Assembly (NCBI GenBank): GCA_045536305.1
Contig: JAZSNH010000029.1
Location: 56,225-120,224 of the forward strand
Direction: 5' to 3'
DNA: 64,000 nt
Origin: Acutalibacteraceae bacterium
GTDB lineage: Bacteria; Bacillota; Clostridia; Oscillospirales; Acutalibacteraceae
The notes under the pieces were generated by a model. It searched no databases, was not told the DNA's origin, and was given only the letters and a program-made list of their open reading frames with translations. A program made the position numbers and the translations under genes. Positions 8,862 through 50,013 of the stretch are shown here, one piece after another. How positions within the stretch are numbered: position 1 is the stretch's first letter; each line of letters opens with the position of its first letter.

Positions 8862-9521
8862 TTAGTCTCCTTTTATAGCTTTTTTAACCGCCTTGACGGA
8901 TTCCATGCCTGAAAGCACCACTACCTTGTCCCCTTCGAGTATCTGAGTGCCGCCTCGGGGGATAATTGTCTCTCTGCCTCGCACTATTGACACGATAAGA
9001 GAGGAACGGGGAAGCTCGACATTGACAATTGCCTTGCCGCAGACGGGAGCGCCGCTGTCTATGACATATTCATATATTCCTGCATCGCCGTGGTTGAGGG
9101 TCGCAACAAGATATGCACTTGCGGAATCTGCTTCCTGTTCTATAACTCGGGTAATAATTTCGGAGTCGCAGAGCACGAAATCAACGCCGAGACGCTTGAG
9201 CACCTCCACGTTGCCCGGATTGTTCGAGCGTGCAATGGTTTTTGGAACATTGAAGGTTCGCTTTGCAAACTGACAGGCGATCAAATTGTCTTCATCCCTG
9301 CCTGTTACGGCGATAAATACCTGTGCTTCTTCGGTTCTTGCATGTTTTAAGCTTTTTATTTCCGTAGCGTTGCCGAAAATAACAGGCTCGTCAAGACGGG
9401 TGCTGATGTCTGTTGCACGATCCATGGATATTTCGATAAGGCTTACCTCATGACCTCTTGAAAGCATGGTTTTTGCAAGATAGTAGCCTAAATCTCCGCC
9501 GCCTGCGATTACTATTTTCAT
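8862..9521 (-). CDS. TrkA/KtrA-type potassium-uptake regulatory protein (RCK: TrkA_N + TrkA_C)
   Basis: ORF track 8862..9581. The ATG at 9521 gives MKIVIAGGGDLGYYLAK (Rossmann GxGxxG), with a C-terminal TrkA_C-like fold (GKAIVNVELP...ILEGDKVVVL). Confidence 0.85.
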   Translation of the reverse strand: MKIVIAGGGDLGYYLAKTMLSRGHEVSLIEISMDRATDISTRLDEPVIFGNATEIKSLKHARTEEAQVFIAVTGRDEDNLIACQFAKRTFNVPKTIARSNNPGNVEVLKRLGVDFVLCDSEIITRVIEQEADSASAYLVATLNHGDAGIYEYVIDSGAPVCGKAIVNVELPRSSLIVSIVRGRETIIPRGGTQILEGDKVVVLSGMESVKAVKKAIKGD

Positions 9522-9796
9522 ATCGGACCATCTCCGCTCATTTTTTATATACATTATATACTGCAAAGGTAAGATAGTCAAATGGGCGAGGCGGCACGCT
9601 TTTTAAGAGACAGCCTCTTATAAAGTATAAAATTGCGCTTTTTCTGCGGCGGTGTGTAATTTTTATTTAAAATTTCGGAAGAGGACAAGGAACAGAAATA
9701 AAAGAAAAAACGCATAAAATCAAGCCTTTTTTCTGTATTGCCCTATGTATATTCAAGTAAAGTTTTTCAGTTCACGAATTATTTAAACTCAACATA

Positions 9797-46453: not shown

Positions 46454-46707
46454 ACGCTTCTTCCTCTCTTAAAAGAGTGCACAAAAGTTAATGCTTTCCA
46501 TATATATTAACTTCTGCACATGTATAGTCATTTTACTACATCAAAAACACTCTTGCAATACAAAAACGGACATTTTAATGGCTTTTACAGAAATTTATTA
46601 TAAATTTTTTCTTTATTTGCCATCGGTTTTGTTATATTTTTAACAAAGAGCAGCCTGCCCGAGAAGGAATCGGAAAAGAATATATCGGGAAAACGCACAC
46701 TGCAAAA

Positions 46708-46748
46708 GAAAGCAACAGCCTTTGCAGAGCGCAAAGGCTGTTGCTTTA
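46708..46748 (-). terminator. intrinsic terminator of the TIR gene
   Basis: GCAACAGCCTTTGC-agagc-GCAAAGGCTGTTGC is a 14-bp stem. On the minus strand it is followed by TTTCTTTTGC, about 10 nt after the stop at 46758. Confidence 0.75.
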
Positions 46749-46757
46749 AATGATAGA

Positions 46758-48224
46758 TCACTGCTTTGGGGTATAGCTGTAGAGCAATCGGGTATTTACC
46801 TTCCTCGTGTCTGAGGCCGTATATACTGTGTCGCTCCAGCTGCTGAAGGAAGTCCACTTGCTGTAGCTATAGCTGTAGGAACTGACAGAACGTGTACGGT
46901 AATAATATTTTGTGTATGCAGGTGTCACTGTAGTTTTGTTTTCGGTAACATGATAATAATATCTTCCTGTGCTGCTGTCGCGATATTTTGTTCCTGAGCC
47001 GGCGTGTCCGCAGCTCCAGGAGCCCGCTGTGGGCAGCTTGCTGTCTCTGGTGATCTTGATCTCACTCCATGAACGGGAGGGATACTGGGCTTTTGCACAG
47101 GTCAGACAGTAATGAAAATGGGCTGTAGCTCCGCTTTTTGTGCCTCTGTAGCCTCTGTATGTATAGGTCGTCTTATAGGTTGCGGCAATATTTTCGGTTT
47201 TATCAATTTTCAGAGTCTCCGATTCCGTTACCGCACTGTTGCTGGTTTGCTGATCGCTCCAGGCCGAATAGTTCGGTGTTTTTGAAACTTGAGTCCAGCC
47301 GGTGAGGCTGCTGTTGGGAGATACCGTGGTGACTTTATCGGAATACTGATATTGCTTTTTGCTTTTGATTGTAGCGTTCTCAGAGCTTATTCCGGAGGGA
47401 AGCTCGTCCTTGGTCATCCAGGGAGAGGACGTTGCTTTTGTTGTGGTAGTGGTTTTCTTTGCGGTCGTAGTAGTAGATCTTCTTGTGGTAGTAGTGGTTT
47501 TCTTTGTGGTTGTGGTCGTGGTCGTGGCAGCAGAGGTTTCCTTTGCTGCAGTAGTGGTCGTTGTATTGTTTTTTGATTCCTGCGTGGTGGTAGTAGTGAT
47601 GACAGGCGGTTCTGGAGGGCCGGGCTGTGGCTGCGGATCAAAAACACCGAGTGCTTTGGCGGCAAAAGCGCATGCGGCAACAATGAGAACGAGAGATGCT
47701 GCGATGATTATTTTGCGAATTGCCGGGCTCGAAGACTTCTTTATGGGAACATCTTGCGGCACTGTGTCATTGGATGTCCCGTTTAATGCCGAGTAGATAC
47801 GGTTTGCGGTTTCGTCGGGGGACTCACCTTTGACATAAGGAACGCCGTGAAGATGGGTAAGATCGACATAAAAGCCTATGCTGTAGGTAGGTACTTTTGA
47901 AGGATCTATCTCATCAAGAAATACAGGAATAATGCGTTTATTATAGAGCAATGCCTCGGAATATTCTTTTCTGACATAGCTTTTTTCTTTTTTGAACAGG
48001 TGCTTTGTTACAAAGAGAATGACAACATCGCACTTTGAAATATGCTCTGCTATCTGTGTTTCCCATTCAAGTCCGTATTCAAGTCCGTAATCATACCATA
48101 TCGGAACACCTTTGGAATCGAGCGCCTGCGCTACCTTGCTTATACGATTTGTGTCTTCGTTGTTGTAGCTTATAAAGTTGAATTTATCGGTATAATGAGG
48201 AATAAAGCCAAAATCAGTTGCCAT
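46758..48224 (-). CDS. TIR-domain transmembrane protein (N-terminal TIR, TM helix, poly-Thr stalk, Trp/Tyr-rich C-terminal domain)
   Basis: ORF track 46758..48317; ATG at 48224. FNFISYNNED...ISKVAQALDSKGVPIWYDY...IAEHISKCDVVILFVTKHLFKKEKSYVRKEYSEAL fits the TIR_2 pattern, including S-x4-E. TM helix IIIAASLVLIVAACAFAAKALGV. Hinge PQPQPGPPEPP. Thr-rich stalk of ~55 aa. C-terminal domain of ~220 aa. Confidence 0.7.
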   Translation of the reverse strand: MATDFGFIPHYTDKFNFISYNNEDTNRISKVAQALDSKGVPIWYDYGLEYGLEWETQIAEHISKCDVVILFVTKHLFKKEKSYVRKEYSEALLYNKRIIPVFLDEIDPSKVPTYSIGFYVDLTHLHGVPYVKGESPDETANRIYSALNGTSNDTVPQDVPIKKSSSPAIRKIIIAASLVLIVAACAFAAKALGVFDPQPQPGPPEPPVITTTTTQESKNNTTTTTAAKETSAATTTTTTTKKTTTTTRRSTTTTAKKTTTTTKATSSPWMTKDELPSGISSENATIKSKKQYQYSDKVTTVSPNSSLTGWTQVSKTPNYSAWSDQQTSNSAVTESETLKIDKTENIAATYKTTYTYRGYRGTKSGATAHFHYCLTCAKAQYPSRSWSEIKITRDSKLPTAGSWSCGHAGSGTKYRDSSTGRYYYHVTENKTTVTPAYTKYYYRTRSVSSYSYSYSKWTSFSSWSDTVYTASDTRKVNTRLLYSYTPKQ

Positions 48225-48342
48225 TTTTTTCACGCCTTTTAAAATATTAACAGAATAATCATAGTTGATATTTCTTAATAATTCAATAGGAAAAATTTTT
48301 TTGTGGAATACAAACAAATAATGTGGGTTTTATTGGTATAAC

Positions 48343-48377
48343 AAAACCTCTGAAAGATTATCTCTTTCAGAGGTTTT
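48343..48377 (-). terminator. intrinsic terminator (probably the original ychF terminator, now downstream of the RAYT insertion)
   Basis: AAAACCTCTGAAAG-attatct-CTTTCAGAGGTTTT is a 14-bp stem with a minus-strand T-run after it. It lies 10 nt beyond the duplicated ychF 3' end (48388-48412). Confidence 0.8.
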
Positions 48378-48387
48378 GAGAGTTTAT

Positions 48388-48412
48388 TCAGACATTGAAC
48401 AGGAAATGCAAG
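48388..48412. repeat. direct repeat, copy 1 (displaced duplicate of the ychF 3' end)
   Basis: TCAGACATTGAACAGGAAATGCAAG vs 48916-48940 TCAGACATTAAACAGGAAATGCACG (23/25). On the minus strand both encode H-F-L-F-N-V-stop. Confidence 0.85.
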
Positions 48413-48413
48413 G

Positions 48414-48923
48414 CTAATTGCCTGAGTACATTTTATCGAATTCCCAACGGGAGGGGTTTTCAAGAATATATGCGGCAATTTCATCATAATCATGCTGATT
48501 GCGAATTATATGCTCATAAAAGGATGTCTGGAATAATTTATTTATCGGCTTTACCCTGTTGCATTCTCTTGCGGTCAACGATTTATACGCACAGATTACA
48601 TCTGTAACCGTAGGGCGGGGGCTTGCTCCCGCAGTTTCACTCATGGTCAGAATAAAGTGTATATGATTGGGCATAATAACGTATTCGCGTATCTGCACAA
48701 AGGAATATCGTTTTTTAAGGAGCATCAGCTGCTCTTCTGCAATACTGCCGTATCGGGTAAGGTCGATTTTGGCGGGAGCAAGCCCCCGCCCTACGATATG
48801 TGACAGTATGCATTGGCGGTTTTGAGTACATATTGTAATAAAATAAGCACCCGAAGAACTGTAATCAAAATTATTCAATCGAGGGTGTTTTCTTTTTGGG
48901 TAATCATAAACAGACTCAGACAT
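48414..48923 (-). CDS. REP-associated tyrosine transposase-like (IS200/Y1_Tnp superfamily) protein
   Basis: ORF track 48414..49124, whose 5' part overlaps ychF. The ATG at 48923 gives a 169-aa protein starting MSESVYDYPKRKHPRLNNFDYSSSGAYFITICT. HUH motif MPNHIHFIL and Tyr motif SFYEHIIRN. Stop codon TAG. Confidence 0.75.
   Translation of the reverse strand: MSESVYDYPKRKHPRLNNFDYSSSGAYFITICTQNRQCILSHIVGRGLAPAKIDLTRYGSIAEEQLMLLKKRYSFVQIREYVIMPNHIHFILTMSETAGASPRPTVTDVICAYKSLTARECNRVKPINKLFQTSFYEHIIRNQHDYDEIAAYILENPSRWEFDKMYSGN
48609..48795. repeat. 24-bp perfect inverted repeat pair inside the RAYT-like CDS
   Basis: 48609-48632 CGTAGGGCGGGGGCTTGCTCCCGC is the exact reverse complement of 48772-48795, with a 139-bp spacer. 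Each arm is itself a near-palindrome (GCGGGaGC-AA-GCcCCCGC). Confidence 0.9.
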
Positions 48924-50013
48924 TAAACAGGAAATGCACGACATCGCCGTCCTGCATGATATATTCCTTGCCCTCAGAGCGGATAAGGCCCTTTTCTTTT
49001 GCCGCGGCAAGAGAGCCGCCAAGCTCGGTGAGCTTATCGTAGGCAATGACCTCTGCGCGGATAAAGCCGCGTTCGATATCGGAATGTATCTTGCCTGCCG
49101 CCTTCTGGGCTGTGGTGCCGTCAACTATCGTCCATGCGCGGACCTCGGGCTGACCTGCGGTAAGGAAGCTTATATAGCCGAGCAGGTGGTAGCCTGCTCT
49201 GATAAGGCGGTCAAGTCCGCTCTCCTCGAGGCCGAGCTCTGAGAGGAACATCATCTTTTCCTCTTCCTCCATGTCAACAAGCTGGGATTCGAGCTCTGCA
49301 CAGATGGGAAGCACCTCACTGCCCTCTGCCTCGGCAATGGCGCATACAGCCTTGTAATTTTCGTTGCTCTCGATTCCTGCGGAGAAATCCTCCTCGCTGA
49401 AGTTTGCGGCGTAGATCACCTTTTTTGAGGTGAGCAGAGAAACGGTGGAGAGTATCGCGTCCTCGTCCTCGGTGCGTTCAACAGCACGCGCAGGCTTGCC
49501 TGCATCGAGGGTCTCCTTGACTCGAAGCAGGAAATCAAGCTCGCTCTGCAGCGAGCGGTCGCCCTTGAGCTGTTTTCTGGTGCGGTCGATTCTTCGCTCC
49601 AGCACCTCTATATCGGAAAGAACGAGCTCAATATTTATGGTCTCGATATCCCTTGCAGGGTCAATGCTTCCGTCAACGTGGACGATATCGTCGTTTTCAA
49701 AGCACCTTACAACATGGACAACGGCGTCGCATTCGCGAATATTGGAAAGGAACTTGTTGCCGAGGCCTTCGCCGTGGCTCGCACCCTTTACAAGACCTGC
49801 GATATCAACAAATTCAAGTGCTGCATGAGTGACCTTGAGAGGGTTGTACACCTTTGCAAGCTCATCAAGTCTCCTGTCGGGAACATCGACAACGCCGATG
49901 TTCGGCTCGATGGTGCAGAAGGGGTAGTTTGCGCTGGGAGCGCCTGCATTGGTTATCGCGTTGAACAGTGTGGACTTTCCTACGTTGGGAAGTCCCACAA
50001 TACCGAGTTTCAT
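48916..50013 (-). CDS. ychF: ribosome-binding ATPase YchF
   Basis: ORF track 48916..50043. ATG 50013 follows a GGAGGAAA RBS. MKLGIVGLPNVGKSTLFNA P-loop, DIAGLVKGAS and the C-terminal TGS-like DGDVVHFLFNV. Confidence 0.95.
   Translation of the reverse strand: MKLGIVGLPNVGKSTLFNAITNAGAPSANYPFCTIEPNIGVVDVPDRRLDELAKVYNPLKVTHAALEFVDIAGLVKGASHGEGLGNKFLSNIRECDAVVHVVRCFENDDIVHVDGSIDPARDIETINIELVLSDIEVLERRIDRTRKQLKGDRSLQSELDFLLRVKETLDAGKPARAVERTEDEDAILSTVSLLTSKKVIYAANFSEEDFSAGIESNENYKAVCAIAEAEGSEVLPICAELESQLVDMEEEEKMMFLSELGLEESGLDRLIRAGYHLLGYISFLTAGQPEVRAWTIVDGTTAQKAAGKIHSDIERGFIRAEVIAYDKLTELGGSLAAAKEKGLIRSEGKEYIMQDGDVVHFLFNV

Follow-up and report, generated by a model that had tools for sequence, protein, structure and literature searches.

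The window analysed here, a stretch of 64,000 nucleotides from an Acutalibacteraceae bacterium (contig JAZSNH010000029.1, positions 56,225 to 120,224), carries on its reverse strand a gene whose 488-residue product joins an N-terminal TIR domain to a single transmembrane helix, a threonine-rich stalk and a large C-terminal domain, referred to as Cdom here. The same protein sequence is present in the protein collection as entry P0001, from an NCBI source. The open reading frame (ORF) is intact, and the features of the gene are as follows:

46758..48224, reverse strand: complete coding sequence of the 488-aa TIR-transmembrane-stalk-Cdom protein, stop codon at 46758-46760
48258..48286, reverse strand: promoter-like site TTGAAT-17-TATGAT, a consensus match only
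47730..48224, reverse strand: predicted cytoplasmic TIR region, residues 1-165, with the Pfam TIR_2 match (residues 17-123) at 47856-48176
47964..47966, reverse strand: codon of Glu87, the putative catalytic glutamate in the motif Y83-V-R-K-E87, from subfamily conservation and alignments
47640..47711, reverse strand: single transmembrane helix, residues 172-195, IIIAASLVLIVAACAFAAKALGVF, Kyte-Doolittle mean 2.48 over 19 residues
47604..47636, reverse strand: proline-rich hinge PQPQPGPPEPP, residues 197-207
47427..47603, reverse strand: threonine-rich stalk, residues 208-266 (59 aa, 56% Thr), its DNA a degenerate tandem repeat (family D1)
46761..47426, reverse strand: predicted extracellular domain Cdom, residues 267-488 (222 aa), modelled as all-beta, a variable insert lying between WSxWS-like and YRYR-like motifs
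47004..47120, reverse strand: Cys/His cluster in Cdom, H369/H371, C373-x2-C376 ... C405-G-H407, from the residue positions
46709..46747, reverse strand: inverted repeat I2, intrinsic terminator of the TIR gene, consisting of a perfect 17-bp hairpin stem, a loop of 5 nt and, behind it, TTTCTTTTG (T-run)

A TTG codon at 48317, 31 codons upstream of the ATG at 48224 and in an open frame with it, offers an alternative start. Given that five relatives share the N-terminal motif MA[TY]D[FL]GFxP at the position of the ATG, the latter is the real start, and the sequence AAGG lies 8 nt upstream of it. Since the gene has a promoter-like site and a hairpin terminator of its own, the latter as proposed in an initial annotation made from the DNA letters alone, it forms a monocistronic unit. 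A 145-aa poly-valine ORF on the forward strand (47359-47796) is the reverse complement of the poly-threonine stalk and not a gene.

The TIR domain and its membrane anchor

The N-terminal region matches Pfam TIR_2 (PF13676) over residues 17 to 123 (E=1.9e-17, 64.3 bits against a cut-off of 28); it opens with the β-A strand FISY (residues 17 to 20) and contains S82-x4-E87. Searching the PDB with the single TIR sequence gave marginal results. With a profile of the TIR subfamily, we retrieved BtTir (2e-10), BtpA (3e-10) and AbTir (1e-9), while the TIR domains of Toll-like receptors (TLRs; 1e-6 to 1e-3) and of MyD88 matched far more weakly. An AlphaFold2 (AF2) model built from four sequences (pLDDT 72, pTM 0.72) displays five alternating strand/helix elements, and Foldseek related it with a probability of 1.0 to BtpA (E=1.8e-7), PdTIR, RUN1, SARM1, AbTir (TM score 0.76) and the TIRs of SPARTA. 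In the PDB, 96 matches had an E value of at most 1e-3, and all 50 among the matches listed are TIR domains. As modelled, the domain finds its best structural matches in the enzymatic class.

The putative catalytic glutamate, E87, is conserved in 7 of 7 close members of the TIR subfamily. A pairwise alignment places it opposite the glutamate of the PdTIR motif WPQKEL, and hhalign sets it opposite that of KDWVHKEIV in SARM1, while BLASTP of the window TIR against SARM1 returned no alignment. The PDB sequence of AbTir reads W74-x3-E78 in chain numbering, where E78 is, allowing for a 3-residue tag, presumably E208, and the window protein reads Y83-x3-E87. An aromatic residue followed by x3-Glu at the start of helix α-C is thereby common to the window protein (Y83...E87), AbTir (W-x3-E208) and SARM1 (W-x3-E642). 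Going by these alignments, the glutamate of NAD+-cleaving TIRs appears to be in place, with a small caveat about its register, and the window TIR is probably catalytically competent. AbTir, BtTir, BtpA/TcpB, PdTIR and SARM1 are all like the window TIR in their TIR_2 match, their fold (Foldseek probability 1.0, TM score up to 0.76) and their FISY-type β-A strand; identity to the known enzymatic TIRs is, however, only ∼20% and the β-C/α-C loop is 2 residues longer here; activity of the window TIR is a prediction.

The N-terminal motif MA[TY]D[FL]GFxP (MATDFGFIP at residues 1 to 9 of the window protein, 48198-48224) is strictly conserved in the relatives P0002 and P0083 and in loci L083 to L086, whatever the C-terminal fusion. 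In the window protein it was modelled at a pLDDT below 50, and a role of this peptide in docking or regulation is conceivable.

The flanks of the transmembrane helix (15 residues each) differ in charge, with four K/R and one D/E on the N-terminal side versus no K/R and two D/E on the C-terminal side, and the 170-aa TIR region has no signal peptide. Given the positive-inside rule and the absence of a signal peptide, the TIR domain is placed in the cytoplasm (N-in), which is independently supported by the extracytoplasmic location of Cdom homologues. An equivalent Thr/Ser-rich linker is found in P0002 and P0083. With this architecture and topology, the window protein is very probably, as predicted from its sequence, a single-pass type II membrane protein. 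The initial annotation had read the same plan from the letters, i.e., an N-terminal TIR domain with S-x4-E at the position of the catalytic glutamate, followed by a transmembrane helix, a PQPQPGPPEPP hinge and a Thr-rich stalk in an N-in orientation. Every one of these elements was recovered: the TIR assignment held in the Pfam and structural comparisons, the glutamate aligned with those of PdTIR and SARM1 and, once the 2-residue loop difference is allowed for, with E208 of AbTir, and flank charges and Cdom homologues agreed on the orientation.

Cdom and the recurrence of the architecture

Cdom contains two SxWSD motifs (residues 320 and 461), each after YxY...W[TS], and the protein has exactly three cysteines (373, 376 and 405), including C-L-T-C; the initial annotation had pointed out both the motifs and the cysteines. 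The columns H..C.TC ... SCGH are conserved in about half of an alignment of 23 Cdom sequences (A1), and this Cys/His cluster may be a metal or disulfide site. No family in Pfam, NCBIfam or PADLOC corresponds to Cdom. Searches of the PDB with its sequence and profile gave nothing significant, the sole matches being the thrombospondin-1 TSRs (E=1.9 and 7.7), and Pfam TSP_1 was touched by one of the 23 Cdom members (E=0.44). In both Cdom and the thrombospondin TSR, alternating Arg/Tyr strands (YRYRTR) come after a WSxWSxW-type motif, but the six-Cys pattern is absent from Cdom, there is no Foldseek match and the sequence matches are not significant, leaving a resemblance of motif only. Structure prediction and a fold search, as the initial annotation had suggested, yielded an AF2 model from A1 with a pLDDT of 96.3, all-beta, with very long strands and a small insert bearing the H..CxxC...CGH cluster, for which Foldseek found no match with an E value of at most 1e-3 in PDB and BFVD (TM score ∼0.1, very large root mean square deviation). 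The predicted domain is elongated and, as modelled, without counterpart in either database.

To collect homologues of Cdom, we searched 1.84 billion cluster representatives exhaustively with HMMER and retrieved 215 sequences with E<1e-3, 34 of them with E<1e-10, most aligned over approximately residues 5 to 220 of 222. These are clusters at 50% identity, and the count is at least 215. A word-index search with the full-length protein was swamped by the poly-Thr stalk and gave P0002 as the only true relative; used separately, the TIR and transmembrane part had one match and Cdom alone had none. Pfam scans of the top Cdom matches revealed the architectures Pkinase-transmembrane-Cdom, Pkinase-transmembrane-PASTA(n)-Cdom, PASTA-Cdom, Cdom-SLH and zinc ribbon-transmembrane-Cdom. 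We surveyed 149 listed homologues by seed domains and a hydrophobicity scan and found that ∼40 are kinase-transmembrane-(PASTA)-Cdom receptors of the Hanks Ser/Thr kinase type, ∼37 carry PASTA, at least 8 carry SLH, and many are large proteins with a signal peptide. Wherever either is detectable, Cdom sits after a transmembrane helix or a signal peptide. The closest homologue, P0004 (51% identity), is itself a Pkinase-transmembrane-linker-Cdom protein. Judging by these architectures, Cdom is a widespread module, not described before, on the outside of receptor kinases and wall proteins of Firmicutes. Across the family (P0004-P0152), units of the form WSxWS...TRxVETRTxYRYR recur, often in tandem (P0037, P0008 and P0023), and many PASTA kinases and SLH proteins have Cdom as their distal ectodomain.

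The window protein and PASTA kinases of the PknB/PrkC/Stk1 kind follow the same plan, i.e., a cytoplasmic catalytic domain, a transmembrane helix, a linker and an extracellular module, with the same Cdom at the end. They differ in that the window protein has a TIR domain for a kinase and no PASTA repeats, and that it would act through NAD+ chemistry where the kinases phosphorylate. As read from the domain order, the TIR domain would replace the receptor kinase as the cytoplasmic output. We did not assign the protein to the receptor Ser/Thr kinases themselves, as Pkinase matches nothing in the protein or elsewhere in the window and only the ectodomain family and the topology are common to both.

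The same combination of TIR domain and Cdom is found in two further proteins. P0083 (513 aa; TIR_2 1.6e-6) is a TIR-transmembrane-linker-Cdom protein with a TIR domain of the same subfamily. P0037 (666 aa; TIR_2 1.3e-25) has the identical order with at least five Cdom repeat units, and its TIR domain is only 20% identical to that of the window protein. P0002, whose TIR domain is 59% identical, keeps the TIR-transmembrane-poly-Thr plan but ends in an unrelated ectodomain of ∼100 aa, and the metagenome locus L083 encodes a TIR-transmembrane-stalk protein with yet another ectodomain. Locus L086 (3182-3946) encodes a TIR-FHA fusion of 254 aa with a TIR domain of the same subfamily (FHA 4.8e-14, TIR_2 4.9e-10), which suggests phospho-Thr-dependent control of this type of TIR. 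On the short contig L084, a TIR-Sel1-repeat protein of the same subfamily is preceded by a Prok-JAB (JAMM) gene (167-589 and 828-1968). One output domain combined with interchangeable sensor-like modules, as these sequences appear to display, is a pattern typical of signalling and conflict proteins. Because kinase-transmembrane-Cdom and TIR-FHA proteins both exist, the TIR-transmembrane-Cdom arrangement suggests, in the manner of a Rosetta-stone argument only, a short circuit of a pathway that would run from receptor kinase through phospho-Thr to FHA-TIR.

The genetic neighborhoods of these relatives vary. In locus L082 (309-7605), P0037 follows an Mrr-type restriction endonuclease and a TIR-only paralogue of 166 aa that is 68% identical to the P0037 TIR domain, and the cluster also contains a surface protein of 1058 aa with BspA-type leucine-rich repeat (LRR) or Listeria-Bacteroides-repeat features. 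The TIR-FHA gene of L086 is directly downstream of ORFs whose translations look, by eye, like an R subunit of type I restriction enzymes. The contexts of P0037, L086 and L084 give hints of conflict systems. P0002 adjoins two genes for Big_2-Amidase_3 wall hydrolases, and L083 adjoins metabolic genes.

The reading that we prefer for these data is a receptor-like TIR protein in which an outside ligand would lead to clustering and to Glu87-dependent NAD+ chemistry; as an explanation of the whole we give it a probability of roughly 0.5. The stalk would carry Cdom through the wall. The ligand, extracellular or associated with the wall, might be a wall fragment, a receptor-binding protein of a phage or some other surface cue; it would cluster the receptor in the membrane and bring the cytoplasmic TIR domains together. 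Glu87-dependent cleavage of NAD+ could then result in NAD+ depletion or in a signal derived from ADP-ribose (ADPR), upon which the cell would stop growing, undergo abortive infection or mount an envelope-stress response. Self-association is needed for the activity of TIR NADases such as SARM1, AbTir, TIR-STING and SPARTA. The parts of this reading differ in strength. The receptor-like architecture is well supported. Activation of the TIR domain from outside, for which the odds seem about even, gains independent support because the ectodomain is a module that ∼40 receptor Ser/Thr kinases carry outside the membrane. An anti-phage purpose is more doubtful than either.

Several observations weigh against this proposal. 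The PADLOC matches of the protein are weak, namely, SAVED_TIR at 1.3e-7 over 66 aa (residues 13 to 78, the TIR part only) and ThsB at 3e-4. The TIR model is of moderate confidence (pLDDT 72 from 4 sequences), and the register of E87 differs by 2 residues depending on the method, the ungapped HMMER alignment with AbTir being shifted because of the longer β-C/α-C loop. Close relatives are rare, with one among 5.8 billion clusters plus four metagenome loci. The window gene, P0002 and L083 are located amid housekeeping or wall-hydrolase genes and not in defence islands. Finally, Cdom is common in large secreted and SLH-anchored proteins and could be a generic wall-spanning, wall-binding or spacer module.

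An alternative is a tethered effector triggered from inside the cell, where the TIR domain or the N-terminal motif would sense a cytoplasmic cue such as a phage protein. The transmembrane helix, stalk and ectodomain would transmit no signal and would only bring the protein to a given site of the envelope, in the way that PASTA and SLH modules position the proteins bearing them. A structural or anchoring role of Cdom fits its presence in many non-signalling surface proteins, both SLH-anchored and large secreted ones, and the N-terminal motif is strictly conserved irrespective of the C-terminal fusion. In the bacterial TIR systems known so far, the sensing of infection takes place inside the cell, and it is established that most characterised bacterial TIR proteins respond to cytoplasmic events, for which ThsB and SpbK serve as examples. 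However, the TIR subfamily occurs on at least three unrelated ectodomains as well as with FHA and Sel1, which is expected of interchangeable sensors and not of one localisation device, and Cdom takes the position of the sensor ectodomain in ∼40 kinases. We regard triggering from inside as unlikely.

The slot between ychF and rnfC

The relatives of the RnfC protein of the window belong to Acutalibacteraceae (Oscillospirales) lineages represented by metagenome-assembled genomes from the gut, and six sister genomes are 90 to 94% identical in RnfC. The setting of the TIR gene, as it emerges from a comparison with these genomes, comprises the following features:

46647..48341: variable slot from the ychF terminator to the conserved upstream region of rnfC, here holding the TIR gene only
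48342..48938, reverse strand: neighbouring element outside the TIR unit, with Y1 transposase gene, direct repeats and hairpin

DNA homology to the sister genomes (L002-L006 and L018) covers the rnf genes, ends at 46646-46649 and resumes at 48908-48920 in the end of ychF. The TIR gene is absent from the ychF-rnfC interval in all six of them. In L003, argS and ychF are followed by an interval of 755 bp with a DUF7668 gene (9303-9680) and then by rnfC, and in L002 the interval measures 1.77 kb and holds two unrelated genes for transmembrane proteins on the opposite strand (215-1648). Given this different cargo, the slot is a hotspot of variable content and the TIR gene an accessory one. Among 79 rnfC-linked loci, no TIR or Cdom relative was found, and neither these loci nor the window contain a second Cdom, TIR, kinase or PASTA gene.

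The composition of the insert and of its parts also sets the gene apart:

Whole insert, 46647-48907: GC 0.434
TIR segment: GC 0.41, GC content at third codon positions (GC3) 0.41, ∼3.8 standard deviations low
Cdom: GC 0.48, GC3 0.545, native-like
28 long ORFs of the window: mean GC 0.515, GC3 0.564 ± 0.04

This mosaic of TIR segment and Cdom hints at a recent fusion. Taken together, the gene is a self-contained, horizontally mobile cassette without a partner gene, and it displays the features of a horizontally acquired accessory islet. The initial annotation had arrived at such an islet from the AT-rich 5' half of the gene, its own terminator and its lone position, and had noted no partner; the comparison of intervals bore this out by the absence from the closest genomes, the computed GC3 of the TIR segment agrees with the impression by eye, and the neighbours are indeed Y1 transposase, ychF and rnfC. 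It had also described ychF as carrying a transposase insertion, of which the transposase beside ychF stands, while ychF itself is intact (full length, 97.6% identical to its orthologue).

The IS200-like Y1 transposase gene (48414-48923; Pfam Y1_Tnp E=2e-5) is bracketed by 23-nt direct repeats at 48388-48410 and 48916-48938 that are 96% identical and correspond to the 3'-terminal 23 nt of ychF, stop codon included; the distal copy bears the TTC codon found in the sister genomes. A perfect 16-bp hairpin with a T-run at 48342-48378 is probably the original ychF terminator. Inside the transposase coding sequence, a perfect 24-nt GC-rich inverted repeat (48609-48632 and 48772-48795, 139 nt apart) has both arms coding, as …GRGLAPAK… and …AGASPRPT…. 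The transposase insertion is an event separate from the TIR gene. That the TIR gene would be cargo of the IS200-like element is not supported, as the 23-nt repeats bracket the transposase alone and no other copy of the hairpin motif occurs in the window. We likewise dropped a phage origin of the gene, since matches in phage sequences are absent or weak: tblastn against 50,697 phage records gave no match for Cdom and one weak match for the TIR domain, and IMG/VR holds only TIRs of 24% identity.

These data bear on two further explanations of the protein. The first is physiological envelope signalling, in parallel to the PASTA kinases in wall homeostasis or cell-cell sensing, in which the TIR domain would serve as a homotypic scaffold or make an ADPR-derived nucleotide with a regulatory role, and no killing would take place. 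PASTA kinases regulate growth and wall synthesis. The ectodomain that the protein has in common with them, the two wall hydrolase genes next to P0002 and the window's lack of a defence-island context are in line with such a role. In contrast, the gene is accessory, is absent in the sister species and has other genes in its slot, and its foreign composition and extremely patchy distribution are unlike those of a housekeeping regulator. Its relatives, moreover, adjoin Mrr, type I restriction-like ORFs (by eye) and JAB genes. We consider this explanation improbable, somewhat more so than triggering from inside the cell.

The second explanation is that the TIR domain is non-enzymatic or decayed, such that a passive TIR-like anchor would sit on what is otherwise a surface adhesin or wall protein, or the gene would be a recent chimera or pseudogene without function. 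The difference in GC3 between TIR segment (0.41) and Cdom (0.545), with the recent fusion that it suggests, and the moderate confidence of the TIR model speak for it. Yet the ORF is intact and has its own expression signals, and relatives with identities of 26 to 59% retain both E87 and the core motifs of the TIR domain. The three-part architecture, furthermore, recurs with the independent TIR lineage of P0037, which argues for selection on the combination. Among the explanations considered here, this one is the least probable.

Relation to known systems and significance of the finding

The receptor-like TIR reading remains our preferred one, and we compared it with the systems in which TIR domains have been described. 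TIRs of the AbTir type and SARM1 are soluble and are found with a coiled coil, with ARM-SAM or without partner, whereas the window TIR is tethered to the membrane and has a large ectodomain. Virulence-type mimicry of host TLR signalling (TcpB/TcpC) was rejected, given that the TIR domain is not a secreted one but is held by a membrane anchor on its cytoplasmic side.

Thoeris, CBASS, Pycsar and type III CRISPR systems employ TIR domains in conflict, and the window protein has weak PADLOC matches to ThsB and SAVED-TIR. Unlike these systems, the window gene is monocistronic and has no adjacent effector, cyclase, SAVED, CARF or STING module. Membership in Thoeris, CBASS or Pycsar was therefore rejected for want of a partner gene: for Thoeris, there is no adjacent effector gene, with Y1 transposase, ychF and rnfC as the neighbours, and the ThsB match has an E value of only 3e-4; for a TIR effector of CBASS, Pycsar or type III CRISPR, Pfam detects no SAVED, STING, CARF or cyclic-nucleotide (cNMP)-binding domain, and there is no cyclase among the immediate neighbours. 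In the published types of Thoeris, transmembrane helices occur in separate effectors and not in the TIR protein (Rousset 2022, PMC9122126; Thoeris survey, bioRxiv 10.64898/2025.12.03.692087). A survey of E. coli reported a transmembrane segment among the extra domains of four new TIR systems and noted that TLR-like features, i.e., a transmembrane helix plus an ectodomain, seem absent from bacterial TIR systems (PMC11350192). In the PubMed Central and bioRxiv literature, we found no description of a bacterial TIR receptor with both a transmembrane helix and an ectodomain, where coverage is incomplete and an earlier computational mention is possible.

A further parallel in overall plan is with animal Toll-like and IL-1 receptors. 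Common to both are a single membrane pass, an extracellular recognition region and a cytoplasmic TIR domain, and the approximation of TIR domains is the logic proposed for the window protein. The differences lie in the order and in the parts: in TLRs, the TIR domain is C terminal (type I), belongs to the scaffold class and is joined to an LRR or Ig ectodomain, whereas in the window protein it is N terminal (type II) and belongs, as far as its matches indicate, to the enzymatic class. The reversed order was already remarked upon in the initial annotation and agrees with the N-terminal position of the TIR domain. With this order, and with an ectodomain that has no LRR or Ig match, the protein is not a member of the Toll-like/IL-1 receptors but an analogue only; nothing points to common descent, and the similarity in architecture would be convergence.

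What is new here is a receptor-like membrane architecture for a TIR protein, together with a new ectodomain family. With this family, the analysis defines a widespread domain, so far without annotation, that PASTA-type kinases and wall proteins of gut Clostridia carry on the outside and whose predicted structure is confident. A bolder and tentative interpretation is that the protein is the founding example of transmembrane TIR receptors that sense outside events, such as phage adsorption, breaching of the wall or a surface ligand, and respond through oligomerisation-driven NAD+ chemistry, i.e., a convergent bacterial "Toll-like receptor" whose Cdom would be a new fold and whose TIR-FHA relatives would be the two-protein version. 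If this were true, detection would act before, or independently of, genome entry, and in the two-protein version a receptor kinase would recruit TIR-FHA through phospho-Thr. A single polypeptide that couples surface events to NAD+-based signalling or suicide is now a directly testable idea.

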